DNA from: Flavobacteriales bacterium
GTDB taxonomy: Bacteria > Bacteroidota > Bacteroidia > Flavobacteriales_G > JALEGO01
Length of the DNA: 64,000 bases
Direction: 5' to 3'
Assembly (NCBI GenBank): GCA_020628935.1
Contig: JAHDEG010000007.1
Coordinates: 47,878 to 111,877, forward strand
A program made the translations under genes and the position numbers. How positions within the stretch are numbered: position 1 is the first letter of the stretch; every line of letters starts with the position of its first letter. Of the stretch, positions 1,683-55,163 are shown piece by piece. Under the pieces are notes generated by a model. It ran no database searches. It had not been told where the DNA came from and saw only the letters and a program-made list of their open reading frames with translations.

Positions 1683-3671
<1,989 letters not shown>

Positions 3672-3726
3672 ATAAATTGCAAAAAAAGCAACTTTTTGTG
3701 TCGTTTTAACGATTAAGGGGTAGGTT

Positions 3727-6700
3727 TTGAAATCATCCATCAAAATATTATCCCTTTTTTTATGCTTAGCATTTTCGCTAACAAATTTTTACAATGCTTC
3801 CGCAATCACCAATGCAACGGGAAACTTTCAACAGACTGTAACGCAGTATTCAAATGGATCAACAGATGATCCTATATACATCTATTGTGGCATCGATAGT
3901 AATTCAATGGGGCTCTCAGCTAGTAACGGTGTAGGTAATTTTAATTACCAATGGTCAAAGTACAATCCAGTAACTAACTCTTTTGATGCGTTTTTCACAG
4001 ACAACAATACGCAAACATCCTCCATAAATAATATTTCTTCAGGAGGATATAAAGTAAAAATATCAGATTTAAGTAATAGTGTAATTTCTTGCGAAATAAG
4101 CTGGGTATTTGCTTCTAAAGTAAACCATGAGATTAGTGTAAACAATAACTCTTGCAGCGATTATAATATAAGTTTAAATACCATTATTGAAGATAGCTTT
4201 AAGTACTACTATCCTCCAAAAGAAACATTAATAATAGATTCAAATACTTCAATTAATGTTTGTATAGATGCAGAACACTTTATACCATCAGACTTGGGTT
4301 TTGTTTTATATGGTCCAACCAATTGTGGAAGCCCAGCAGTTACGCTTGCTCCTCACCACAATGCGTTGGCCGGATGTTTAGGAGTAACTTGTCCGCCCCC
4401 AAATTTTCCTGGATCACAAATAACAAACCTTTGCTTTAATTCCGCTTCTACAAACAGCTTTTATATATGTGATGCTGGCTTCAGCAACCCTACTGGTGAA
4501 TACGCATGGTATGACGACACTTATTGTTCTTTGGGTGGAGGAGGATATCCTACAAGTACCTTTTCAGACTTTGAAGGATGCCTTGCTACTGATTCAGGAT
4601 GGGCCATTCAAGTTTTTGACGGCAGAAACGGAACAAGTGGCACACTCAAAAATGTAGATATTACCATATCTAAGCAAAACGGACTCTGTAATCCTATAGT
4701 AATTGAACATAAATCAGGAGCACTAAACCTACCTATAGACGATAATAAATTTACTACCTTAACCGCAACAAAATATACATTACCTGCATACACACAAAAT
4801 ATAACTAATGAACAAGATAGCTTTACTGTAGATTTTATAAACAGTAATCTATCAATTAACTGGACATCAGATAACCCAAACGTTACAATAAATACTCCTA
4901 ATTCAGACACCTTAAAAATCAGCAATCTACCACAAGAAGATACTTGGTTTTACGTCTCATCAACAAATTATTTCAACTGCACCTATGCCGATTCTATATT
5001 TTATCAAAGTCTTAATCAAAAAATTGACAGCATAACAATTATACCGCCTAGCTGTTTTGACAGCGCAACTGGTGAAATATTAATTCACGCCACGTGGGCC
5101 AATCAATTTAGTATTGATAACGGAACCTCTTGGCAATCATCAAACGAATTTAATAACATCACTAAGGGAAATTTTCAAATTATAGCCCTCTCTAGTTCAG
5201 GATGCTCAGATGACTCATTAATTACAGTCGCTGATCCTCCAAAATTAATTATCGATTCTTATGTTACAGCAAACCCATCGTGTAATAACACATGCAATGG
5301 AATGATAGAAATTAACCCAAACGGAGGAACACCTCCTTACACTCACACATGGAATATTAATAATTCGAACATAAACTCTCAAAATAATTTATGTGCCGGA
5401 AATTACCAAATCACCACAAGTGATGTTAACGGATGCATAAAAGACACTAGTTTTATACTAAACGAACCAGAACCTTTAGAAATAGTAACTGAAATAGATA
5501 GCGCTAACTGTAATGGAAATAACGGCAAAATAAGCCTTAATTACATTAGTGGCGGAACTCCTCCCCTGACCTATGTTTGGAATAACGGAAACTCTACGAA
5601 TACACTAAATAATGTCAACACTGGCATATATTCGGTAACGGTAACAGACAATAATTCTTGCGACAGCGTATTTAGTAATCTTGAAGTAATTTCAAAACAA
5701 AACCTAACTGTAAGTATAAATAAAATGGATACTACCCTTTGTTATGGAGCAAATATCAATTTAGAAGCAATCAGTTCAAGCGGAACAGCTCCATACACCT
5801 ATTTATGGAATAATGGTTCAAGCAATAAGACAATAACATCCGATAGTATTTTGGCAAACTGCTATGCAGTAACCGTTACAGATGCAACTGGATGTACAAA
5901 TCAATCAGAACAAACCTGCGTTAACTTATATGAACCAATTACAAACTCTATTGATCAGCTCTCATTAAAAATCTGTGAAGGAGATAGCCTAACTTTTACA
6001 ATTGAAGCAAATGGCGGAAATCCATCAAATCCATTAAATATTAATTGGGAAGGATTTAGCAGTAACAGTTTTTCACCTACAATTTATCCTCAAGGGGCAT
6101 TTCCTGACACCAACTATTATAAAGCAATAGTATCTGATGGAGGATGCAGTACAAACGATACCTCTTATTACGAAGTTAGTTTTTATGGAGCCCCAGAAAT
6201 AGATTTTTCATCAGATGTTACTGAAGGATGCGCGCCATTAAACGTAAATTTCAAACATGAGAATGAACAAAGTATTAATTGTATTTGGAAAATTGATAGC
6301 CTAACAACCCTTACTGGCTGCAGCAGCACCAATTTTACTTTTAACAAGGAAGGAATATTTGACGTAAATTTATTGGTGAATTTTGGAGGAAACTGCCTCA
6401 TTTCTACTACCAAAGAAAATTTCATAACAGTTAAAAAGTCTCCTGAGTTAGAATTTACAATCGAGAATCAAAACTTAACTTTAAACGATGCATCTACCAA
6501 GCTAACTAATCTCACCAACAGAAATAACAACACAAGCTGGAGTATTTATGATTCACAAAATAACATTTTGGTTTTAGAGGAAAGCTCGTACTCACCCACC
6601 GTTGATTTTTCAAGCTTTATTTCAAATCCCTCAAATAATTTTGCACTTGGCACCAACAATTTACTTTATGATGTAGAGCTCAAGGCTACAAACTCATTTG

Positions 6701-44721: not shown

Positions 44722-46641
44722 ATGAAAAATATTTTATTAGTTGATAATAGCGTTTCTGTACTTAATTACGTATCGGTTGTTATCGAAAAATTCTCTAATA
44801 ATGATTTTCAGGTTATAACTTCAGAAAAATATAATAATGCCATTAAGGTATTATCTGAAAAACACATTGACTTAATTCTGCTTGACTTAAACCTAGAAGA
44901 CTCTAACGGAGTTGAAACTTTCCATAAGCTAAGAAAACAAAATGGGTTAGTGCCAATAATAATACTAACCTCATCATCTGAAGAAGGTTTGTACTCCGAA
45001 ACATTAAAAATGGGAGCTCAAGACTTTATTAATAAAAGTGATCTAAACACTAATCCTCAAATGTTAATCAGGTCTATAAGATTTTCAATTGAACGCTTTA
45101 AATTTTCGAAGGAAAAAAGAATACTATCATCTATTGCTTCCAAAACATTTAACAACGTTTTAATTTTAAATAGAGAAGGTGAAATTCAATGGGTTAACGA
45201 TGCATTCGAAAAAAACTACGGGTACAAATTTGAGGAGATTAAAAATACTAAAGGAGAAATATTGAGAAAAGAATTGCCTCAATGGATAGCTAATAGCAAT
45301 ATATTAGAAAACTCTATTAAAGAAAATAAGCCCATACAATACGAACTCAAAAACTATCCTAAATACGGTGGATATTTTTGGTCATCTGTAACTATCTCTC
45401 CAGTTTTTGAAAACCCTAATAGTACTTTTTCTTACTTTATAGTAGTTGAATCGGACATCACAGAACGGGTTTTGTATGAAAGAAAGTTACAAAAAGCAAA
45501 AAATATAGCCATAAGAGCCAGAAAAGCGGAAGAGGAATTTATTGAAAATATAAGCCACGAAATAAGAACACCATTAAATGGAATTATAGGTTTAACTGAC
45601 CTAAGCCTTGAGCAAAATGATCTATCGCCAGACCAAAGGTTATCTCTGGAAAAAGTACTCTATTCTTCTAGATTTTTACTAAACATCATTGGGGATGTAT
45701 TAGATTTTTCTAAAATATCAAAAGGAAATATAGAGATTGAAAGCATCGAATTTGATCTTTTACAACTACTTGAGGAAATAAAACTATCTAATAGACTTGC
45801 TCTAAACAAAAACATGGAAGTAGAATTTATAACAGTGTTCTCTAATAAATTACCAGAAAAAATAATTGGTGATAGCACAAAAATCAAACAGATTATAGTT
45901 AATATACTTTCTAATGCATTTAAGTTTACTAATAGAGGATTTGTAAAAATGTCTGTTTGCCCAACTATGACAAAGGAAACTGAGTTTTTGAAAATTACAA
46001 TTGAAGATACTGGTATAGGTATTGAGGCTAGCAAACAGAATAAAATTTTTGAAAAATTTAAACAAGAAGATGTATCAACATCTCGAAAATATGGAGGTAC
46101 GGGTTTAGGGTTATCAATAGTAAAAAAACTAGTTACTTTGATGGATGGAAAATTAGTGCTAAGTAGCACTAAAACGAAAGGTACCAGGTTTGATATTTAT
46201 ATCCCCTTTAAACAAGGAAAAAAAATTATATTAGACAATGAAAAAACAGAGCAAGAACTTACAAATATTTTCAAATGTAAAAGTATTTTAGTAGCAGAGG
46301 ATAATCAAATCAATCAGTTATATATAAAAAACCTTTTCAAAAATTGGGGTGTAGAAATTTCTTGTGCAATTGACGGTCAAGAAGCTATTTCAATGGCAGA
46401 AGAAAAGTTGTATGATGTAATTTTAATGGATGTACAAATGCCAAATAAAGATGGATATGTAGCAACAAAAGAAATCAGAAAACTTAACTCACACTACGCA
46501 AACACTCACATAATAGCGTTAACTGCTTCTGCCAGCACGAAACAAAAACAGAAATGCTTAAAATCAGGTATGAACGATTATATGACAAAGCCATTTAAAA
46601 AAGAAGACCTCAAACGAAAACTAAACGAAATTTTTACTTAA
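44722..46641 (+). CDS. Hybrid sensor histidine kinase: REC-PAS-HisKA-HATPase-REC
   Basis: The N-terminal REC has ILLVDNS and LILLDLNLEDSNG. A PAS-like segment follows (NREGEIQWVNDAFEKNYGY). The H-box is ISHEIRTPLNGIIGL, the N-box NILSNAFKFT, and the G-boxes IEDTGIGI and GGTGLGLSIVKKL. The C-terminal REC has ILVAEDNQIN and VILMDVQMPNKDG. Confidence 0.9.
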   Translation: MKNILLVDNSVSVLNYVSVVIEKFSNNDFQVITSEKYNNAIKVLSEKHIDLILLDLNLEDSNGVETFHKLRKQNGLVPIIILTSSSEEGLYSETLKMGAQDFINKSDLNTNPQMLIRSIRFSIERFKFSKEKRILSSIASKTFNNVLILNREGEIQWVNDAFEKNYGYKFEEIKNTKGEILRKELPQWIANSNILENSIKENKPIQYELKNYPKYGGYFWSSVTISPVFENPNSTFSYFIVVESDITERVLYERKLQKAKNIAIRARKAEEEFIENISHEIRTPLNGIIGLTDLSLEQNDLSPDQRLSLEKVLYSSRFLLNIIGDVLDFSKISKGNIEIESIEFDLLQLLEEIKLSNRLALNKNMEVEFITVFSNKLPEKIIGDSTKIKQIIVNILSNAFKFTNRGFVKMSVCPTMTKETEFLKITIEDTGIGIEASKQNKIFEKFKQEDVSTSRKYGGTGLGLSIVKKLVTLMDGKLVLSSTKTKGTRFDIYIPFKQGKKIILDNEKTEQELTNIFKCKSILVAEDNQINQLYIKNLFKNWGVEISCAIDGQEAISMAEEKLYDVILMDVQMPNKDGYVATKEIRKLNSHYANTHIIALTASASTKQKQKCLKSGMNDYMTKPFKKEDLKRKLNEIFT

Positions 46642-46647
46642 GTAGAT

Positions 46648-46989
46648 ATGCTTTTTTTTAACCCTTCAAAAATTGATGAAATTTGCTCTGACGACAACGA
46701 GTTTAAGCAACAAATTATAAAAACTTATAACGAAGTTACCTTAGACTCTATAGAAAAAATTAAAAACGCTGTTATAAACGAACAAATAGATGATATAAAA
46801 TTTCATGCACATAAATTAAAATCAAGCTTCGATTTTTTAGGCGCAAAGTCACTTTCCTATAAGTGTATGAGGATAGAAAGTAACTGTATTAACAAAACAT
46901 TAACCCCAAATAACAAAACCGAAATTAATGATTTTATAATTCTGCTAGAAGATTCAATATATGAAATTAATTCATTAATTAACCAATAG
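46648..46989 (+). CDS. Hpt domain protein
   Basis: The 113-aa helical protein has the motif IKFHAHKLKSSFDFLGA (H-x-x-K-x-S...G). Confidence 0.7.
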   Translation: MLFFNPSKIDEICSDDNEFKQQIIKTYNEVTLDSIEKIKNAVINEQIDDIKFHAHKLKSSFDFLGAKSLSYKCMRIESNCINKTLTPNNKTEINDFIILLEDSIYEINSLINQ

Positions 46990-46998
46990 GATCTGCAA

Positions 46999-47655
46999 AT
47001 GAAAACAGTTAATATAATAATCGCTGACGACCACCAATTAATCATTGATGCTCTTAAAGCATATCTAGAAAAAACAGAGGATATTAATGTTATTGCTACA
47101 GCTAGTAATAGTGATCAACTTTTAAAGCTTGTAAATATGTACGCAAACAAACTTGATGTTATTTTACTCGATTATCATATGCCAACGATGAGTATAGATG
47201 ATCTATTGTTGAATATTAAAAAAATTGATAGTGAATTAAAAACCGTTATCTTATCCTCAGAAAAAAAGATAGAAAACATTATCACTGCACTTAACAATGA
47301 TGCTTTGGGGTATGTACTTAAGGATTGTGATAAAAAAGAAATTAAAGAAGCCATCCTTGCTGCAAAAAAAGCTAAAAACTATTTTTCGAGTGAAATCAAA
47401 ACCATTTTATCAAATAGTTTCATTCAAAACACAGGTGGTAAATCGCAAAACTACAAACTCCCTATATCGGATCGAGAATTAGAAATTTTAAATCTTACCA
47501 GTAATGGTTTAACTAACCACGAAATATCAGACGAATTAGGCATTAGTTTTAGAACTGTTGACACTCACAAAAGAAATATGCTAAAAAAAACTGGTGCTAA
47601 AAATATAACCCATCTAGTAAAACTTGCACTAAAGTTTAAAGAAATCAAAATATAA
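46999..47655 (+). CDS. NarL/LuxR-family response regulator (REC + LuxR-type HTH)
   Basis: The REC domain has IIIADDHQ and VILLDYHMP. The C-terminal LSDRELEILNLTSNGLTNHEISDELGISFRTVDTHKRNMLKK is a LuxR/GerE HTH. Confidence 0.9.
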   Translation: MKTVNIIIADDHQLIIDALKAYLEKTEDINVIATASNSDQLLKLVNMYANKLDVILLDYHMPTMSIDDLLLNIKKIDSELKTVILSSEKKIENIITALNNDALGYVLKDCDKKEIKEAILAAKKAKNYFSSEIKTILSNSFIQNTGGKSQNYKLPISDRELEILNLTSNGLTNHEISDELGISFRTVDTHKRNMLKKTGAKNITHLVKLALKFKEIKI

Positions 47656-47657
47656 CT

Positions 47658-48053
47658 ATGAAACTGAATACTATATTACTAATTGATGACTCTAAAAGCA
47701 CAAATAGTTTAAATGAGAAGCTCATATTAAAATCTGGGATTTGCAAAAAGGTTACCTCCTTCGAAAACCCTAAGCTAGCCATGGAATTTATAAATATTGA
47801 TAATATAAATTCCATAGATTTAATTCTAATTGATTTATTAATGCCTGAGCTTTCAGGAATTGATGTATTAAAAAACATTTCAGCCAAGTTTTCACAAGTA
47901 AAGAAAAAACCTATTTTAATTGTACTAACCGACAGTAAAGACACTGAGAAATATAATCTAGTTAAAGACTTTCTCGGGGCTGATGATTACATAAGAAAAC
48001 CACTAGATGAGGATGATTTATTAGAAATAATTGATCAACACTTCAGAAACTAA
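47658..48053 (+). CDS. Single-domain response regulator (REC only)
   Basis: REC signature residues: ILLIDDSKS, the acceptor LILIDLLMPELSG, IVLTDS and YIRKP. Confidence 0.85.
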   Translation: MKLNTILLIDDSKSTNSLNEKLILKSGICKKVTSFENPKLAMEFINIDNINSIDLILIDLLMPELSGIDVLKNISAKFSQVKKKPILIVLTDSKDTEKYNLVKDFLGADDYIRKPLDEDDLLEIIDQHFRN

Positions 48054-48062
48054 GAAGTCATA

Positions 48063-50663
48063 ATGAAAAAACCATCAGAAATTGAAAGAGTAAGAGACTT
48101 AATCTCTTATCAAATTTTAGACACTGAATCAAACTCAGAATTTGACGAATTGGTAGATCTTGCTTCAGTTATTTGTGATGTACCGATGGCACTTGTTAGC
48201 TTACTCGATGATAAAAGACAGTGGTTTAAAGCTAAAAAAGGAATTGAAGTTCAAGAAACAGACAAAGAAATATCATTTTGCAAACATGCAATTCTAAGTG
48301 ATGAAATTTATGAAATAAATGATGCTCGAAACAATGACTTATTTAAAAACAACCCCCTTGTAACTCAAGAAACGAACCTCAGATTTTATGCAGGAGTTCC
48401 TTTGATAAATAAAAATGGAAATGCCTTAGGTACTGTTTGTGTTTTAGATAACAAACCAAAAGTACTGAATGAGTCTCAAAAGAAAGCCCTCAAAATAATA
48501 GGCAACCAGGTATTACTACTAATCGAAAAGCATAAAAAAGAGCTAGACTTTGATATTTATAAAAACTTTTTTGACAATACATCAAACTTACTTTGCATAC
48601 TGGACGAAAAAGAAAAATTTGAATTTGTAAATGATCACTTCACCTCTTCTTTAGGCTGGAAATTAAACGACATTTCAGCAATGCAATTCAATGACCTAGT
48701 TGATGAAAAAACAAATTTTGATTTTAATATTAAAAATTCTAATTCTAAAAAAACATCATTTAAAACAAGGTTTAAATCTTCAAAAGGAAATTGGGAGTAT
48801 GTAATTTGGAACGGCTTTTACACAAAGTCAAAACTATTATACCTAACAGGACAAAATGTTACTAAACGAGAAAAATTAGAAAATGAAAAAGCACTTATTT
48901 TAGATACTAGCCAAGATATTATCTGCACAGGTGATAAAAACGGGCGCTTTTTAAGCTCCAACGCAGCTATGAAAGCCATATTAGGCTATGATATTGAAGA
49001 TATTATTGGTCAAAAATGGAATAACTTTATTCTTGACGAAGACTTAAGTGTTGCTCAACAGTTTTTTGAAAGGCTTGTAGAATACAAGCAACCAGTAAAT
49101 AATGTAGAATTGAGATTTATTGATAAAAATAAATCCTTGAAAACAATATCTTGGAGTGCGACTTGGAATGAATTACAAAACCATTTCTTCGCCTTCGGTA
49201 GAGACATTACCTCAACCATTGATGCAGTAAGAGAAAGAGATAAACTATTCAAAAACTCTACAGATGTTATAATTGTAGCTACTGAACGTGGAGATATAGA
49301 AAGTACAAACCCAGCATTTCAAGAGTTAATCGGATATAGTGAAACAGAAATTAATGCTACAAACCTTTTTGATATTGTTAGTAAGCAAGATCAAAAAGTT
49401 CTTTCTGATGCAATTGCAAGCATGAAGCGTGGTATTAAAACAGATCAGCTTATTATTAATTTCACATCCAAAGACAATAAAACAGTAACGTTATCTATTA
49501 ACGCTTATATTGACTCTCAGTCGAAAAAATTCTTTTGTGTGGCAAGAGATGTAACATCCTCCGAAAAACAAAAACTTGATTTGATTGAAACCAACGCGAG
49601 GCTAAAAGCAATAACTGAGGCATTACCAGATGCTGCTTTCGTACTTAATAAAAATGGAAAATACATTGATGTAATAGTTAATAACGCTGATGTACTTGTT
49701 AAAAAAACAAGGTTTCTAATTGGCAAAACAATCAAAGAAGTAATGCCAGAAGAATCATGGCGACCAATTCAAGATGTAATTGATAAGTGCATTTCAGAAA
49801 ATAAAGTCCAAGAAATTGAATATACTGTCCCAATTAATGGAACCTTAAACTGGTTTGTTGGCCGGTGTGCGAAAATGTATACTAGTGATAACGAATTAGA
49901 CGCTGTCGTATGGATTGCTTACAACATAGAAAACATTAAACAGAGGGAACGTAAACTAGAAAAGCAAAAAATTATCATTGAAAAATACTCTAAAGAACTA
50001 GAACAGTTTGCTTACATAACAACGCACGATATTAAGGCACCAATCGATAATATTGAAGGCTATCTAGAACTTTTGAAAATGGATATTGAGCCTACAAATA
50101 CCGATGCGCTAAACAGCATCAATTGGATTGACCAGAGCGTTTTAGACACAAAAAGAATACTCTCAGACTTAACATATTCGCTAAAATTAGGAGAGGCCAA
50201 GAAAAAAAACTTTACAAAAATTAATCTTCAACAACTCGTTGATAGCATACTAAATAACCACTCTCACGAGATAACTACCCAAGGCATAGTAATTGGAGTT
50301 GATTTTCATGAGTGCGAAACTATTGAATATGATAAATCTGGTTTAAGAAGTATCTTAGATAACTTAATTTCAAATGCAATTAAATACAGAGATACCAATA
50401 GTGTTTCTGAACTAAAAATTAGTAGCACAAAGGCAAACAACAATATTGTATTATCTGTATCAGATAATGGATTAGGAATTAATCTCGAACAAGATAAAGA
50501 AAAATTGGAAGGATTGTTTCAAAGAATTAGCCAGAACATACCAGGCTCTGGAATGGGTATTTACATAATTAATAAAATACTCGAAAATTATGGAGGATCA
50601 CTAGAAGTTCAAAGTGAAGTAGGTGTAGGATCAACGTTTAAAATAGTACTCACTAATAATTAA
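48063..50663 (+). CDS. Cytoplasmic GAF-multiPAS sensor histidine kinase
   Basis: There is no TM segment. The N-terminal GAF domain reads ERVRDLISYQILDTESNSEFDELVDLASVICDVPMALVSLLDDKRQWFKAKKG...RFYAGVPL. About 475 aa follow with several PAS-like units. The H-box is ITTHDIKAPIDNIEGY, the N-box LISNAIKY, and the G-boxes VSDNGLGI and GSGMGIYI. Confidence 0.88.
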   Translation: MKKPSEIERVRDLISYQILDTESNSEFDELVDLASVICDVPMALVSLLDDKRQWFKAKKGIEVQETDKEISFCKHAILSDEIYEINDARNNDLFKNNPLVTQETNLRFYAGVPLINKNGNALGTVCVLDNKPKVLNESQKKALKIIGNQVLLLIEKHKKELDFDIYKNFFDNTSNLLCILDEKEKFEFVNDHFTSSLGWKLNDISAMQFNDLVDEKTNFDFNIKNSNSKKTSFKTRFKSSKGNWEYVIWNGFYTKSKLLYLTGQNVTKREKLENEKALILDTSQDIICTGDKNGRFLSSNAAMKAILGYDIEDIIGQKWNNFILDEDLSVAQQFFERLVEYKQPVNNVELRFIDKNKSLKTISWSATWNELQNHFFAFGRDITSTIDAVRERDKLFKNSTDVIIVATERGDIESTNPAFQELIGYSETEINATNLFDIVSKQDQKVLSDAIASMKRGIKTDQLIINFTSKDNKTVTLSINAYIDSQSKKFFCVARDVTSSEKQKLDLIETNARLKAITEALPDAAFVLNKNGKYIDVIVNNADVLVKKTRFLIGKTIKEVMPEESWRPIQDVIDKCISENKVQEIEYTVPINGTLNWFVGRCAKMYTSDNELDAVVWIAYNIENIKQRERKLEKQKIIIEKYSKELEQFAYITTHDIKAPIDNIEGYLELLKMDIEPTNTDALNSINWIDQSVLDTKRILSDLTYSLKLGEAKKKNFTKINLQQLVDSILNNHSHEITTQGIVIGVDFHECETIEYDKSGLRSILDNLISNAIKYRDTNSVSELKISSTKANNNIVLSVSDNGLGINLEQDKEKLEGLFQRISQNIPGSGMGIYIINKILENYGGSLEVQSEVGVGSTFKIVLTNN

Positions 50664-50667
50664 CAAA

Positions 50668-51045
50668 ATGAAAAAAATTGACTCAGCATTGATTATTGAC
50701 GATAGCCCAGCATTTATTAATTTGGTGAAAAAATATCTTCAAAAATTTAATTTGTGTGATACTTTTTTCGAGGCTACTAATGGAAAAGATGCACTAAGTT
50801 ATTTTAAGAAAGATAAGCTCCCGTCAGTAGTGTTTTTAGATATTAACATGCCCATTATGAATGGTTTTGATGTACTCGAAACACTTTCTTCAGAAAATAA
50901 AGATTACAGCTCATCTCATATTGTTATGATGTCATCATCCGTTTACAAGGAAGATATAAAACGTTCAAAAACGTTTCCTAATGTATCTTACTTTACTAAA
51001 CCTATAAACATTCAAAAAATAGAAGAAATTTGGAAAAAACTTTAA
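50668..51045 (+). CDS. Single-domain response regulator (REC only)
   Basis: REC signature residues: ALIIDDSPA, the acceptor VVFLDINMPIMNG, VMMSSS and YFTKP. Confidence 0.85.
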   Translation: MKKIDSALIIDDSPAFINLVKKYLQKFNLCDTFFEATNGKDALSYFKKDKLPSVVFLDINMPIMNGFDVLETLSSENKDYSSSHIVMMSSSVYKEDIKRSKTFPNVSYFTKPINIQKIEEIWKKL

Positions 51046-51053
51046 TAAAAATT

Positions 51054-51359
51054 ATGAAAATGGAAAAAAACAAAACTCAAGAACCAACTAATATTTCAAA
51101 ACTCGATGCAGTAAAAGAGCTGATTTTTGGTCAAAATATGCAAGAGTATGATCAAAAATTTGAAACGATTGAGCAATTAATAGATCAGAAATTTAAGCAA
51201 CTCACAGAACAACTAAATACATTAGAAAAAGCTAATAATTTAAACCTAGACCAAGCTAAATCTGAACTAAACAATAAGCTAGATCAACTATCAAATGATA
51301 AGTTAGATCGTTCAAAATTAGCCAATCTGCTTAGGTCTCTTGCAGATAAAATTGAATAA
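51054..51359 (+). CDS. Small coiled-coil protein (101 aa), unknown family
   Basis: It is K/E/Q/L/N-rich with heptad-like spacing (QKFETIEQLIDQKFKQLTEQLNTLEKANNLNLDQAKSELNNKLDQL). I prefer the ATG at 51054 over the TTG at 51030, which overlaps the upstream REC gene. Confidence 0.5.
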   Translation: MKMEKNKTQEPTNISKLDAVKELIFGQNMQEYDQKFETIEQLIDQKFKQLTEQLNTLEKANNLNLDQAKSELNNKLDQLSNDKLDRSKLANLLRSLADKIE

Positions 51360-52114
51360 TGATGAGTTCAACAGATCCATTTGAAGAACTTAAATCTATA
51401 ATCTTACAAGAAGAGCGAAAAAAAAATAATGCAATAACAGAAGATTTAAAAAATAAGCTACTCGATAAAATAAATAAGATAGAAAATGAATTAAATGACC
51501 CTAACAAATTTTCTACTAAAATTGAAGGCTCAAAAAATCAGATCATTGATGTTTTAGGCCCGGTAATGGGTAGGATGATTAAAAAATACATAGCTACCGA
51601 AATCGCAAAGCTAAATGATAACATTAGTTCACAAACCAATAAATTAACCTCCGCTCAATATTGGAAAGAGAAAATTTTCAAAAATAAGAAAACAGATATC
51701 ACTAAAATTAATCAACCAGAAATTGAAGAAATTTTAATGATTAATAAAGAGAGTGGTTTGCTTCTTGGTTGCTATATAAATAATGAACGATTAGATAAGG
51801 ATATGATAGCAGGCATGCTAACAGCGATTAAAGCATTCATGGAAGATACCTTCTCTAATAAAGCTCAAGAAGTTGGGTTTATTGAGTACAGCGACTACGG
51901 CATACTGCTTCACAGCCTTGGTTCATACTACTATTCAGTAGTGTTTTCTGGGAGGAAAAGTAAGCAATTTGAAGAGTTTATAATTAAAGAATTAAACACA
52001 TTCTCAGAAACACAGGTAGGTAATATAAATAAAAACAATAATGAAAACTTCAATGATAAAATGAAGTTATATTTTGAAAATACATGCAAGAAATTAAAAG
52101 AAAAATTGTTCTAA
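51359..52114 (+). CDS. Coiled-coil protein with a C-terminal Roadblock/LC7-like (longin-like) domain, putative GTPase partner
   Basis: The start overlaps the upstream stop (TAATG). The N-terminal ~110 aa are helical and charged. The C-terminal IEEILMINKESGLLLGCYINNERLDKDMIAGMLTAIKAFMEDTF...VGFIEYSDYGILLHSLGSYYYSVVFSGRKS...FEEFIIKEL follows the strand-strand-helix-strand-strand-strand-helix order expected for a Roadblock fold. This was judged by eye only. Confidence 0.45.
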   Translation: MMSSTDPFEELKSIILQEERKKNNAITEDLKNKLLDKINKIENELNDPNKFSTKIEGSKNQIIDVLGPVMGRMIKKYIATEIAKLNDNISSQTNKLTSAQYWKEKIFKNKKTDITKINQPEIEEILMINKESGLLLGCYINNERLDKDMIAGMLTAIKAFMEDTFSNKAQEVGFIEYSDYGILLHSLGSYYYSVVFSGRKSKQFEEFIIKELNTFSETQVGNINKNNNENFNDKMKLYFENTCKKLKEKLF

Positions 52115-52548
52115 TAGGTTGTAAAGGCGTTGGTAAAACATCTTTAATTAAAAAATTTGTACACAATCACTTTGATGAGAAGTATTTAAGTACCATTGGA
52201 GTTAAAGTAGACAAAAAAGAGGTTGTCATTGGAGATAATAACATATCACTTATATTGTGGGATGTTGCCGGAGAGCTACTAAACGATAGAATGTTATCCT
52301 CTTACACACTTGGAGCTCACGCTATTGTATATGTGCACGATCTAACAAGACCTGAAAGCTTCAATACCTGCTTGAGCACACTAGAAAAAATTAAGTGTGA
52401 TAAAAAAATAATAGTGGGAAATAAAACTGATTTAATTACTGCTAACAATAATAATTTTAGCACCAAATCCGATTACACAACAAGTGCGAAATCTGGTGAA
52501 GGAGTTGAAAAACTATTTCTAGAAATTGCTGAAAGCTCAATTAATTAA
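52084..52548 (+). CDS. Ras-superfamily (Rab-like) small GTPase
   Basis: G1 is LIGCKGVGKTS, switch I YLSTIGVKV, G3 LWDVAGE, G4 VGNKTDL and G5 TSAKSGEGVEKLF. The 154-aa product has no C-terminal Cys. The start overlaps the upstream gene by 31 nt. Confidence 0.85.
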   Translation: MQEIKRKIVLIGCKGVGKTSLIKKFVHNHFDEKYLSTIGVKVDKKEVVIGDNNISLILWDVAGELLNDRMLSSYTLGAHAIVYVHDLTRPESFNTCLSTLEKIKCDKKIIVGNKTDLITANNNNFSTKSDYTTSAKSGEGVEKLFLEIAESSIN

Positions 52549-52637
52549 ACTCACTGATCATAAGTAAGTTTCAATATGAATTAGTGAGTTAATAAATATT
52601 TTGAACATCCCACTCCCTTAATGACTTAACTACAAAA

Positions 52638-55130
52638 TTACTTGACTATCAAAAAGTGAAAATCCATTAGTGATGGATCTATGGATGAACCAGAAGGATT
52701 AAATAACTTTACTGTTACGAGGTCAGCAGACGATACATACGTTTGAGCAACAATTAAATTACCTAAGCTACCATTCGGAGAAACCGACACCGCAGAGCCA
52801 ATTTCGGCACCTGCAACAGTAAATGATTGTGTAAAAACTATTCCCGGATTAATACTAGGTACATCGCCTGCCACACTAACTTTTAGTATAGTTTGCAACT
52901 CACTACCGTTATCACCAACTTTTAATGTTCCATTATCTTTAATTGTAACATCACCATTTGTTACTAGGTCACCTGTAGCACCGTTAATTACTAATAGTGT
53001 ATCACCAACATTCACATTTTCATTAATATTTAGTGGACCATTAGATATAATTGAGTCAGTAAACGTTGAAACACCTAAAACAGAAATATTAGCATTATTT
53101 ATTACATCGCTCGAATTAGTTACAACACCAGTATTAGAAACTGTTCCGAAATTAGACACGGCATCGAAGTTAGAAACCACTCCAAAATTAGAAACTGCGT
53201 CAAATGTATTTACAGGAGATGAAAAACTGGCCGATTGAGAAAAAGTAGCTGTTGAATTTACTGAAAAAGAATTGCCTGACCCCGAACCAAATGAAGCATC
53301 TTCATTCACTGAAATACTAGATGCGCTGAATGAACCCGCGCTAAATGTATTTGCATTTAAGACATTAACATCAATGGTATCTATATCAGCTACATCAGCA
53401 TTTATATAATTGGTTATAGTGCTATCTAAATAACCTACATCAGAAGCTATAATTGAGGATTGTATAGTATCTGATACTATATTTTGAGCCTCTACATAAA
53501 CAGGAGTAATCGAGTCAGGATCAAAATCAAAATTGGTTGAATTAAATTCTAAATAATTTGCATAAATTGTATCTGAAGTAATTTGTTGAGCGGCAACATT
53601 ATCTACTTCCAACTCATCAACTCTAGCGGTATCAACTTCTAAAACCTCAACTGTAATTGAATCTGTCACAACCATGTTTGTAGTTATCCAATTTGAATTT
53701 ATCATATCAATAGTTGCATTTTGAGCATCTAATTCTTCAGTCTCTAACCAATTTGAAGCAATAGAATCAGCGCCTAATATGTTTGTTTCAATAGAATCAG
53801 AAACCAGCGCATCAATACTTGCTTGTGGAGCCTCAAACATATCAGCATAAAGCCAAACAGCATCTAACTCATTTGCACTTATTGTATTTACATTAATCGA
53901 ATCTGAAACTAGAACTACTGTGTTAATAGTGTCAGAAGTTAAGTTAGAAATGGTTCCTTGCTCAGAACTTAACATATTAGCATCTAACCAAACGGCATCT
54001 AACTCTCCTACTTCCAAAATATCAGTTTGAATAGAATCTGATGTTAATTCTGTTATTTCTCCCTGAGAAGAACTTAGCATATTGGCATTTAACCAAACTG
54101 CATCTAACTCGTTTACATTTAAAACATTAGTCTCTATAGAATCTGCAACTATGGTGTCAGCCAATAAAGAATTTACACTCCCCATTGAACCAACAAACTC
54201 ATCTGCTGAAATCCAGTTTACAGATAATGAGTCTACACCCAAAGAAATAACATTAAGAGAGTCGGCATTAATAACATTAAAAAATGATGTATTTGCATTT
54301 ATGTATGACATTGTAGCACTATCTCCATTTAGGTTAAGAACATCTATATGATCAGCATTTATAGAATCGGCTGATAAAAGCTCAGCTTCATAGTCTGCAG
54401 CACGTATACTTTGTGCCGTAATTGAATCAAAAGTTGCCGTTTCGCCTTCTAATTCAAAAATATAAGACGAAATTGCGTTTACAACTTCGGTAGATAAAGT
54501 ATCTGCAGTAATTGTTGTTGCAGATACAATTGTAACATTTACAGTATCTGATTCAATAACCCCAGCGACTATTTCATCAACACTAATAGTGCTAGAACCA
54601 GCCCAAATTCCGTTATTAAACGTAAGCAAGTTACCGTTTTGTATGTTGCTCGTATCTACGTCTAACAAATTACTAAGTGTAATGTATTCAATACCTGTAT
54701 TTAATGCCGTATCTGCTACCATCGCGTAAGGTACAGTTAACAATTGTGAAGTACCTACATCTTCCATTCCACTTGCAAAATCGACTTTTACATTTAAAAA
54801 ATGATCTGCAGTTCCCCAATCAATATCCTCAAAAGTAAAAGCAGAACCTGCTCCAGTGTTGGTGCCTGTTCCTATTACCACATTTAACAAGCCGTGGCTG
54901 TTGGTAGTAGTAATAAAGTTCTCTTGCCAAGCAACAGAGCCGTTAACACCACCTTCTAAAATATTCATTTGAATTAATAGGGTTCTATTAGGCTGAATTT
55001 CACCATCAGAGTCTCTTATAATACCTTGGTAGCTTATTCCGCTAGGTACTTGTGAGTATCCATTGTTTGTGATAGCTATAAATGCTACAAAAATTACGCT
55101 AAATAAAACTTTATTTAAAATTGTTCTCAT
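52638..55130 (-). CDS. Secreted fibre-like repeat protein (830 aa) with no recognisable T9SS sorting domain
   Basis: The ATG at 55130 gives the signal peptide MRTILNKVLFSVIFVAFIAITNNGYSQ. The N-domain is ISYQGIIRDSDGEIQPNRTLLIQMNILEGG..WQENF.TTTNSHGLLNVVIGTG. The central ~450 aa consist of degenerate (S/A)D(S/T)I-type short repeats, with three ELDAVWL(N/D/Y)A(N/D)M copies. The C-terminus has none of the type-A or type-B tail motifs seen in neighbouring genes. Confidence 0.6.
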   Translation of the reverse strand: MRTILNKVLFSVIFVAFIAITNNGYSQVPSGISYQGIIRDSDGEIQPNRTLLIQMNILEGGVNGSVAWQENFITTTNSHGLLNVVIGTGTNTGAGSAFTFEDIDWGTADHFLNVKVDFASGMEDVGTSQLLTVPYAMVADTALNTGIEYITLSNLLDVDTSNIQNGNLLTFNNGIWAGSSTISVDEIVAGVIESDTVNVTIVSATTITADTLSTEVVNAISSYIFELEGETATFDSITAQSIRAADYEAELLSADSINADHIDVLNLNGDSATMSYINANTSFFNVINADSLNVISLGVDSLSVNWISADEFVGSMGSVNSLLADTIVADSIETNVLNVNELDAVWLNANMLSSSQGEITELTSDSIQTDILEVGELDAVWLDANMLSSEQGTISNLTSDTINTVVLVSDSINVNTISANELDAVWLYADMFEAPQASIDALVSDSIETNILGADSIASNWLETEELDAQNATIDMINSNWITTNMVVTDSITVEVLEVDTARVDELEVDNVAAQQITSDTIYANYLEFNSTNFDFDPDSITPVYVEAQNIVSDTIQSSIIASDVGYLDSTITNYINADVADIDTIDVNVLNANTFSAGSFSASSISVNEDASFGSGSGNSFSVNSTATFSQSASFSSPVNTFDAVSNFGVVSNFDAVSNFGTVSNTGVVTNSSDVINNANISVLGVSTFTDSIISNGPLNINENVNVGDTLLVINGATGDLVTNGDVTIKDNGTLKVGDNGSELQTILKVSVAGDVPSINPGIVFTQSFTVAGAEIGSAVSVSPNGSLGNLIVAQTYVSSADLVTVKLFNPSGSSIDPSLMDFHFLIVK
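53113..53202. repeat. Five imperfect tandem copies of an 18-bp unit inside the 830-aa gene
   Basis: The units start at 53113, 53131, 53149, 53167 and 53185, with consensus rAAtTTAGAaACnnnnyCr. On the coding strand they give the hexapeptide repeats DAVSNF/GVVSNF/DAVSNF/GTVSNT/GVVTNS. Confidence 0.7.
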
Positions 55131-55163
55131 AATAATTAACAATTGAAGTGGGGACTAATTTTT

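Follow-up and report, generated by a model that had tools for sequence, protein, structure and literature searches.

A Group 1 Rup GTPase cassette in a Flavobacteriales contig and a predicted longin/Roadblock-type fold for its DUFX protein

A DUFY-DUFX-Rup cassette and its described relatives

The longin/Roadblock-type fold is a docking platform for small GTPases in eukaryotes and in Myxococcus. Among bacterial proteins, the Group 1 Rup GTPases came out closest to eukaryotic Rab, Ras and Rho in the survey of Wuichet and Søgaard-Andersen (2014, Genome Biol Evol 7:57; PMC4316618), who catalogued their gene neighborhoods. According to this survey, the set comprises a Ras-like GTPase without the G3 glutamine, a cytoplasmic coiled-coil protein, a conserved ‘Unc’ domain protein, in many cases continuing into a transmembrane helix and OmpA, and a signaling output protein with an invariant Gln in its N-terminal region. 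In Table S2 of the survey, Lacinutrix, Krokinobacter, Cellulophaga, Croceibacter and Flavobacterium branchiophilum appear with the order DUFY>DUFX>Rup, and entries elsewhere in the table with ‘DUFX:OmpA’. The GTPases of Group 1 have a wide distribution across Bacteroidota, Cyanobacteria, Chloroflexi and Proteobacteria. When the literature was searched for Group 1 Rup and the locus tags of its genes, and for longin domains in bacteria, no follow-up to the 2014 survey came up. Here, we analyze 64,000 nucleotides of contig JAHDEG010000007.1 from a Flavobacteriales bacterium (assembly GCA_020628935.1, positions 47,878 to 111,877; “the window” in the following) and three consecutive genes in it, S, M and G, which are the DUFY, DUFX and Rup genes of a Group 1 Rup module and, as such, were already catalogued. 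No fold was given for DUFX in the 2014 paper; the longin/Roadblock assignment, which is predicted from models, is added by the present analysis. The genes and their parts are as follows.

51054-51359, + strand: gene S (DUFY), an open reading frame (ORF) of 101 aa counted from ATG (public annotation P0121, 101 aa)
51102-51149, + strand: LDAVKELIFGQNMQEY, the N-terminal motif of S; the consensus in the family is KIEAIKxLIFGENIQxY, with an invariant Gly (alignments, logo)
51359-52114, + strand: gene M (DUFX), an ORF of 251 aa
51380-51406, + strand: FEELKSIIL, the N-terminal motif of M; the consensus in the family is FxxLRxILL, and L11 and L15 are almost invariant (alignment, logo)
51560-51628, + strand: single copy of a 23-aa repeat in M, PVMGRMIKKYIATEIAKLNDNIS; P68 and G71 are invariant columns
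51719-52105, + strand: predicted longin/Roadblock-like domain of M, residues ~121-249 (AlphaFold models, Foldseek, sub-threshold Pfam matches in relatives)
51794-51853, + strand: DKDMIAGMLTAIKAFMEDTF, predicted helix α1 of this domain; no other stretch of the family alignment is as conserved
52084-52548, + strand: gene G (Group 1 Rup GTPase), an ORF of 154 aa, Rab-like

The three genes are tightly packed: the stop codon of S and the start codon of M share the sequence TAATG, and M, directly upstream of the small Ras-family GTPase gene, overlaps it by 31 nt. An alternative start of S is a TTG at 51030, which would give a product of 109 aa. The coordinates and peptides quoted for S and M in a preceding reading of the bare DNA (the original prediction) were all recovered; S contains ...LDAVKELIFGQNMQEY..., and M contains ...FEELKSIILQEERKKN..., IEEILMINKESGLLLGCY, YYYSVVFSG and FEEFIIKEL.

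The cassette is common. We fetched 84 Bacteroidota loci for a survey of gene order, and in 83 of them an S-type ORF (110-140 aa, with the same N-terminal motif) lies directly 5′ of M, while at least 78 of the 84 have an ORF for a P-loop GTPase after M, the usual overlap with M being 8-14 nt. A word-indexed search returned 166 homologs of M, nearly all of them unnamed, and the M profile detected 4853 representatives of 50%-identity clusters at E<=1e-3. The signature GMLTAIK[AS]F was found in at least 593 species-level genome loci, all from Bacteroidota and covering Flavobacteriaceae, Roseivirga, Cyclobacteriaceae, Saprospiraceae and Chitinophagales. Bacteroidetes genera with DUFY>DUFX>Rup in Table S2 also occur among our loci. 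Given these numbers and the catalogue entry from 2014, the arrangement can hardly be called an unusual form of scaffold, as the original prediction had supposed.

M profile searches also returned long homologs (528-1159 aa), in which a hydrophobic segment is followed by BON and OmpA domains. A distant locus with such a long form has the same order, namely an S-like gene, the long M (BON+OmpA), a Ras-like GTPase gene and then a sigma54 activator. In Roseivirga (locus L004, R. misakiensis, 4978-5607; also L008, L009 and L021), a separate gene for ~209-238 aa is located just 5′ of the cassette, and its product in L004 combines a hydrophobic segment at the N-terminus with a PG_binding_1 domain; this gene may substitute for OmpA, which in other phyla is a fused domain of the DUFX protein itself. 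As a side observation, the DUFX homologs P0035, P0040, P0051 and P0072 bear the pipeline names ‘hemerythrin’, ‘MinE’ or ‘OmpA’ without having such domains. All of these names look like annotation carry-over, including ‘hemerythrin’ and ‘OmpA’ as given by the Joint Genome Institute (JGI) to short DUFX homologs.

Gene G encodes a Rab-like GTPase (Pfam Ras, 2.4e-28; Roc, 8.8e-22), and the best 60 solved relatives listed are all Rabs, with Rab1A in first place (2.2e-21). Its motifs are G1 GCKGVGKT (52108-52131), G3 WDVAGE (52246-52263), G4 NKTD and G5 SAK. Ras position 12 is a Lys in the window, compared to Phe in 69 of 78 GTPases (window G plus the locus copies). In the same 78 sequences, the column of Ras-61 is occupied by E, N, T, F, Y, D or K, but never by Q, and the window has Glu. 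Position 59 is Glu in 49 sequences (DxEGx) and Ala in 28, of which 27 have Glu at 61 (DxAGE, including the window), the exception being L078 with DVAGT. Hence a Glu is present at position 59 or 61 in 76 of the 77 sequences with a residue there, which looks like a covarying pair; judging from this alternation, the G3 Glu may be an intrinsic catalytic residue or a residue positioning Mg or water. By inspection of the G sequence, no switch-I Arg resembling that of MglA was seen, and the G3 Asp is kept.

Judging from its sequence, S is a cytoplasmic protein and a clear heptad coiled coil. Its best 28-residue window has a heptad periodicity of 0.78, compared to maxima of 0.49±0.09 in shuffled sequences (p=0.01), and the family logo shows hydrophobic positions spaced 3-4-3-4 across ~50 residues. 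A profile search found 141 relatives, whereas the search with the single sequence recovered only S itself, the word index being insensitive to this low-complexity protein. No match to S was found among Pfam and NCBIfam families.

Compared to the described set, the window has a single-domain Ras-superfamily GTPase with G1-G5 motifs like those of eukaryotes but without the G3 Gln, as well as an adjacent coiled-coil DUFY and an adjacent DUFX; the fourth gene, for an output protein with the invariant Gln, is not present. Gene order and three protein families are shared, and OmpA is missing in the Bacteroidetes form. The window differs in the missing fourth gene, in the position of the cassette after a six-gene two-component cluster and in its M, a short variant with one 23-aa repeat. 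This copy of a known cassette is mostly ordinary, a variant without the usual output gene. In 71 of 78 related loci, the gene after G encodes a protein of ~200-640 aa, mostly a histidine kinase, and the product has a conserved N-terminal domain (...Q.I..D..G....SD..LF......HPFFES...) with an invariant Gln, fitting the 2014 description. A hidden Markov model (HMM) of this domain matched none of the six frames of the whole 64-kb window, and G is followed there by a convergent gene (the 52548-52640 region being free of a fourth gene). The closest relative of window M (47% identity, locus L085) has a kinase-REC fourth gene at 2637-4145, with Tyr in place of the invariant Gln. We conclude that the window lineage has lost the fourth component, for which the upstream two-component cluster may be a replacement.

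An analogy between Group 1 Rup and the actinobacterial conservon (CvnA-D) was proposed by the authors of the survey (PMC4316618), and in both systems a small GTPase, a protein of the longin/Roadblock superfold and a histidine kinase are encoded together. However, the GTPase of the conservon belongs to MglA Group 2, CvnB is a genuine member of Robl_LC7, and CvnC (DUF742) is without counterpart in the window. Neither Robl_LC7 nor DUF742 was matched by any of the nine neighboring window proteins scanned with Pfam. With a GTPase of the wrong family (G is Rab-like, of the Rup type) and no DUF742 protein, the locus is not a conservon, and M, whose fold the original prediction had likened to that of CvnB, is not related to that system, the GTPase of which is of the MglA family.

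Predicted fold of the C-terminal domain of DUFX

M is built of N-terminal helices, a single Pro-punctuated repeat of 23 aa and the predicted C-terminal longin/Roadblock-like domain, and no Pfam or NCBIfam family matches it above threshold. Residues 7-94 are helical in the AlphaFold model (helices 7-45 and 48-94), at low to moderate confidence, and a crude heptad test of this region was not significant (p=0.48). Of the two coiled-coil proteins that had been predicted, S is consequently well supported, whereas the N-terminal half of M is helical without significant heptads. The repeat follows the helical pattern P-Φ-Φ-G-x-x-Φ-x-x-x-Φ... and is found in 1 to 7 copies in relatives, at an exact spacing of 23 aa (P0176, P0254, P0256, P0263). 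In the window, the segment (PVMGRMIKKYI...) is amphipathic and net positive, with a hydrophobic moment of 0.53. This value is only suggestive, and it is speculation that the Pro-Gly segment might be a membrane-binding amphipathic helix with a membrane-peripheral role.

An α/β region of ~120 aa confined to the C-terminal part of the second protein, as anticipated from the DNA, is indeed present in the AlphaFold models. The full-length model of M (54 sequences) has a mean predicted local distance difference test (pLDDT) value of 70.7, with a confident C-terminal domain consisting of β121-129, β135-140, α147-164, β172-177, β180-187, β190-197, α202-222 and α228-249. Short helices of low confidence precede β1 at residues 99-108 and 114-118. 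A model of the domain only (residues 108-251, 70 sequences; pLDDT 77.6, predicted template modeling score 0.73) again shows ββαβββαα. When either model was compared to PDB using Foldseek, the 50 top-ranked matches listed were all longin or Roadblock domains, with E-values of 3e-5 to 1e-3 (49 of 50 at E<=1e-3) and template modeling (TM) scores of up to 0.63. They comprise the longin domain of Sec22b (3e-5; TM 0.57/0.63, 105-109 columns), LAMTOR subunits (1.2e-4; TM 0.50/0.63), the C-terminal domains of RagA/RagC (~2e-4), MglB (2e-4; TM 0.44/0.48, 94 columns), and AP sigma subunits, COPZ1, Ykt6 and MglC (2e-4 to 8e-4; MglC 8e-4).

Longin and Roadblock domains differ in the order of their elements, the longin domain being ββαβββαα and Roadblock its circular permutant αββαβββα (Levine et al., 2013). 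In both predicted models, the elements of M appear in the longin order rather than the Roadblock order. Sequence signals in the family, all of them sub-threshold, were examined in 70 full-length and 47 domain-only members. Fuz_longin_1, the first longin domain of FUZ/MON1/HPS1, was matched by 22 of the former and 14 of the latter (best 8.4e-4), and the matches span α1 to β4 in the expected register, with 14-17 bits compared to a cut-off of 26 bits. Intu_longin_1 was matched by 8 members in each set and Clat_adaptor_s by 2 of the 47 domain-only members, whereas Robl_LC7 (PF03259) was matched by 1 of the 47 (E=0.052). Based on the models, residues ~121-249 of M are predicted to adopt the longin/Roadblock superfold, and a longin domain is favored over Roadblock proper because of the order of strands and helices and the recurrent sub-threshold matches to Fuz_longin_1 and Intu_longin_1. 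The Roadblock/LC7 fold put forward in the original prediction is accordingly right at the level of the superfold, as found by Foldseek, with longin-like being the better description of the domain.

Helix α1 is near-invariant on all of its faces and across phyla, with the family consensus D-x-D-M-x-A-G-M-L-T-A-I-K-x-F-x-E-D-A-F. G152, M153, T155, A156, I157 and F160 are invariant, and D146, D148, A151, L154, K158, E162 and A164 are nearly so. Further nearly invariant residues are L208, F215 and F239 in α2 and α3, two helices which precede the transmembrane helix in the long forms. No Arg, Gln or Asn is invariant in the family alignment of M. In dimers of longin and Roadblock domains, the ‘top’ helix and β3 provide both the surface for dimerization and the face that binds the GTPase (Levine et al., 2013). 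By analogy, α1 of M appears to be the counterpart of this platform helix and might have the same role.

Possible roles of DUFX at the GTPase

We consider it reasonably likely that S, M and G work as a Group 1 Rup module in which M is a platform that binds and regulates G, and S is its coiled-coil partner. The gene order and its conservation, the family memberships, the predicted fold and the GTPase motifs are observations; we infer from them that M binds G and S binds M physically. The C-terminal domain of M would be the docking platform for the adjacent Rab-like G and would form a dimer, probably through β3 and the conserved helix α1. When docked, M would control or read the nucleotide state of G. 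As for the direction of this regulation, nucleotide exchange or a stabilizing platform, as in Mon1-Ccz1, TRAPP and Ragulator, would be favored over the role of a GTPase-activating protein (GAP) of the MglB type. The coiled coil of S and the N-terminal helices of M would most likely form a stalk. In other phyla, M would extend beyond a transmembrane helix, with BON and OmpA domains in the periplasm that tether the module to the cell wall; the Bacteroidota form of M, including that of the window, would be soluble or bound peripherally. The usual fourth gene would provide the signaling output protein; the window cassette lacks it and closes a two-component gene cluster. Read in this way, the fold assignment gives the system a concrete architecture of a GTPase-binding platform, a coiled-coil stalk and, in some of the phyla, an anchor in the cell wall. 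After MglA/MglB, a second family of bacterial GTPases would then follow the rule that a longin/Roadblock dimer serves as their platform.

Several points weigh against this module reading. In the family members scanned, all matches to Pfam longin and Roadblock models stay below threshold, and window M has no match to these models at all. The M family profile, when run against PDB sequences, hit only AP-4 sigma, a protein of longin fold, collinearly and with non-significant values (E=0.096 and 0.51). The AlphaFold models are only moderately confident (pLDDT 71-78), the conserved α1 has the lowest confidence within the domain (pLDDT ~61-71), and the E-values of Foldseek are modest. Moreover, no Rup member had been experimentally characterized according to the 2014 survey, which proposed the invariant Gln of the fourth protein as a GAP residue acting in trans (PMC4316618). 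Given that proposal, in which DUFX has no assigned role, M could be a mere tether. As far as the fold is concerned, the moderate confidence and the missing significant match to any solved structure or Pfam family could mean that it is a modeling artefact, and that M has an unrelated α/β sandwich whose function has nothing to do with the GTPase. This, however, is very improbable: the two independent models agree, the 50 top-ranked matches listed fall in one superfold, the sub-threshold sequence signals, the weak AP-4 sigma match included, independently indicate the same superfold, and the coupling of the M gene to the GTPase gene is near-universal.

If the domain is of this superfold, M might still act otherwise than by exchange or stabilization. 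The model implied in the original prediction is that of a Roadblock GAP of the MglB/CvnB type, the dimer of which would bind G-GTP and reposition the GTPase’s own catalytic residues. MglB and MglC are indeed among the structural matches (2e-4 to 1e-3), one homolog of M was named ‘Roadblock/LC7/MglB family’ by JGI, and, as in the MglA-MglB system of Myxococcus and Thermus, a bacterial small GTPase is encoded beside a protein of the longin/Roadblock superfold (structural E~2e-4). But activation of the MglB type needs intrinsic catalytic residues of the GTPase (PMC4316618; Levine et al., 2013), and the Gln at Ras-61 is missing from all 78 family GTPases, as is, in G, any visible Arg like that in switch I of MglA. 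M, for its part, offers no invariant Arg, Gln or Asn that could act in trans. A GAP of either the MglB type or the finger type is unlikely for these reasons. Further differences from MglA-MglB point in the same direction: G is Rab-like, outside the MglA family, and keeps the G3 Asp, and M has a predicted element order of the longin type, no Robl_LC7 match and a helical N-terminal extension of ~115 aa. Taken together, we regard the Roadblock GAP as quite unlikely. An exchange factor or stabilizing platform, or else a pure tether or effector, fits M better. In the latter case, M would bind G-GTP, comparable to the longin domain of SRα on SRβ, for localization to membrane, cell wall or coiled-coil stalk only, leaving the nucleotide cycle unchanged, and hydrolysis would come from the fourth protein or from the Glu 59/61 of G. 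The anchoring of the long forms by a transmembrane helix, BON and OmpA agrees with such a passive role, as do the candidate catalytic Gln placed in the fourth protein by the 2014 survey (PMC4316618), the Glu at Ras 59 or 61 in nearly all family GTPases (L078 excepted), and the existence of longin/Roadblock platforms which are neither exchange factor nor GAP (Levine et al., 2013). Yet the window and its clade are without the Gln of the fourth protein or the whole gene while M and G remain tightly coupled, and the near-invariance of α1 across phyla suggests more than an anchor. We consider a purely passive M rather unlikely, noting that it overlaps with the regulatory platform we prefer.

That regulatory platform has its closest eukaryotic likeness in guanine nucleotide exchange factors of Rab proteins (RabGEFs) with three longin domains, i.e., in the first longin domains of Mon1-Ccz1, Fuzzy-Inturned and HPS1-HPS4. 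In common is a predicted ββαβββαα domain paired with a Rab-like GTPase, and Fuz_longin_1 and Intu_longin_1 are the Pfam families most often matched by relatives of M, over α1 and β3-β4. The differences are that all these matches are sub-threshold (14-17 bits compared to 24-26) with none from window M, that the RabGEFs have three longin domains and M has a single one after a helical stalk, and that an exchange role of M is putative. Besides the fold assignment, this tentative hint of a likeness to the catalytic longin domains of RabGEFs is what our analysis adds to the catalogue. Its strongest form would be that DUFX is a true bacterial domain of longin order, kin to the catalytic first longin domains of RabGEFs of the Mon1/Fuzzy/HPS1 type, and an exchange factor for Group 1 Rup, a tentative proposal to which we give rather little credence. 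If true, the longin order and the Mon1/Fuzzy-like signal would bear on the origin of eukaryotic Rab regulators; the pairing of longin exchange factor and Rab would be older than eukaryotes or would have arrived by horizontal transfer along with the GTPase, and longin domains would not be limited to archaea and eukaryotes. If confirmed, the DUFX fold and the RabGEF hint would be of interest for GTPase evolution. Ragulator-Rag offers another, speculative analogy: LAMTOR subunits and the C-terminal domains of Rag are among the best structural matches of M, and both systems have a helical partner beside an α/β platform. However, there is no sequence relation, and S is a canonical coiled coil, whereas LAMTOR1 is an extended wrap.

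The shared N-terminal pattern and the genes around the cassette

The original prediction also saw similar N-termini in S and M. In the family logos, both keep Φ-x-x-Φ-[RK]-x-Φ-Φ-Φ where the first helix begins, and the M proteins P0139 and P0104 carry the full S-like version, ‘ILLGED...F..L’ or ‘ILFGEE’. Likewise, S and M of a distant locus are alike in this part (NLAQIRDIIVGED and ALSRLRDILLSED). Between the two window proteins themselves, BLASTP detected no similarity (E=14). At the level of families, hhalign aligned the motifs in register in a first pair of alignments (P=0.0039, probability 8.5%) and again using broad alignments of 198 S and 250 M sequences, in which the score of 20.3 (P=3.1e-4, probability 39%) was reached by none of 120 column permutations but nearly approached by the reversed-profile controls (15.5 and 17.1). 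Restricted to the N-terminal segments, the score was 13.9 compared to 8.0±1.9 for the permuted null, with 3 of 150 permutations reaching it. With whole-length alignments derived from the loci, another coiled-coil region came out on top and the reversed profile scored equally high; this comparison was not used as evidence. The S HMM gave at best 19.4 bits on M sequences, and up to 16.5 bits on reversed ones. An HMM of the motif only yielded nothing significant between S and M, and a position-specific scoring matrix of the S motif performed no better on M than on controls, its best position coinciding with the M motif in 102 of 265 proteins.

The shared N-terminal pattern thus stands at the family level, with weak statistics, and is compatible with a common origin or a common binding mode. 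The resemblance had suggested paralogy or hetero-oligomerization; S and M would be paralogs with an ancestral N-terminal helix, through which they form a hetero-oligomeric coiled coil. The motif kept at the same place in both families, its full S-like version in two M proteins, the in-register alignment and the distant pair argue for this, as would a fusion of the two: in the database protein P0213 (293 aa), the C-terminal half of an S protein appears to be joined in frame to a complete M N-terminus. It is a partial gene at a contig end and may be a natural fusion or an artefact of assembly or frameshift. On the other hand, the BLASTP result, the low hhalign probabilities, the dependence on the alignment chosen and the closeness of the reversed controls speak against paralogy, as do the failures of motif HMM and scoring matrix, and a short amphipathic helix motif converges easily. 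Paralogy and hetero-oligomerization through the N-termini are a plausible proposal, reaching beyond what the statistics establish, and we consider it possible but doubtful.

Two further features flank the cassette.

44722-51045, + strand: two-component cluster of six genes (Pfam domains), directly upstream of S
52638-55142, - strand: ORF of 834 aa without Pfam match

The order in the cluster is REC-PAS hybrid histidine kinase, Hpt, LuxR-type response regulator, REC, GAF-PAS histidine kinase and REC, and only 8 nt separate the end of the last REC gene from the start codon of S. The cluster is probably co-transcribed with S, M and G, and it may be a signaling input or output of the cassette. Downstream of G, on the opposite strand, type IX secretion genes are found (PorP/SprF+SPOR, CHU_C, Por_Secre_tail). 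The G+C content of the window is ~31%, which, taken with the type IX secretion genes, identifies the DNA as coming from a member of the Bacteroidota. The 834-aa ORF has a signal-like N-terminal segment and several long internal repeats (...ELDAVWL.ANMLSS.QG.I..LTSD...). Since it adjoins the PorP/SprF, CHU_C and Por_Secre_tail genes, its product is probably a type IX secretion cargo or a surface protein.

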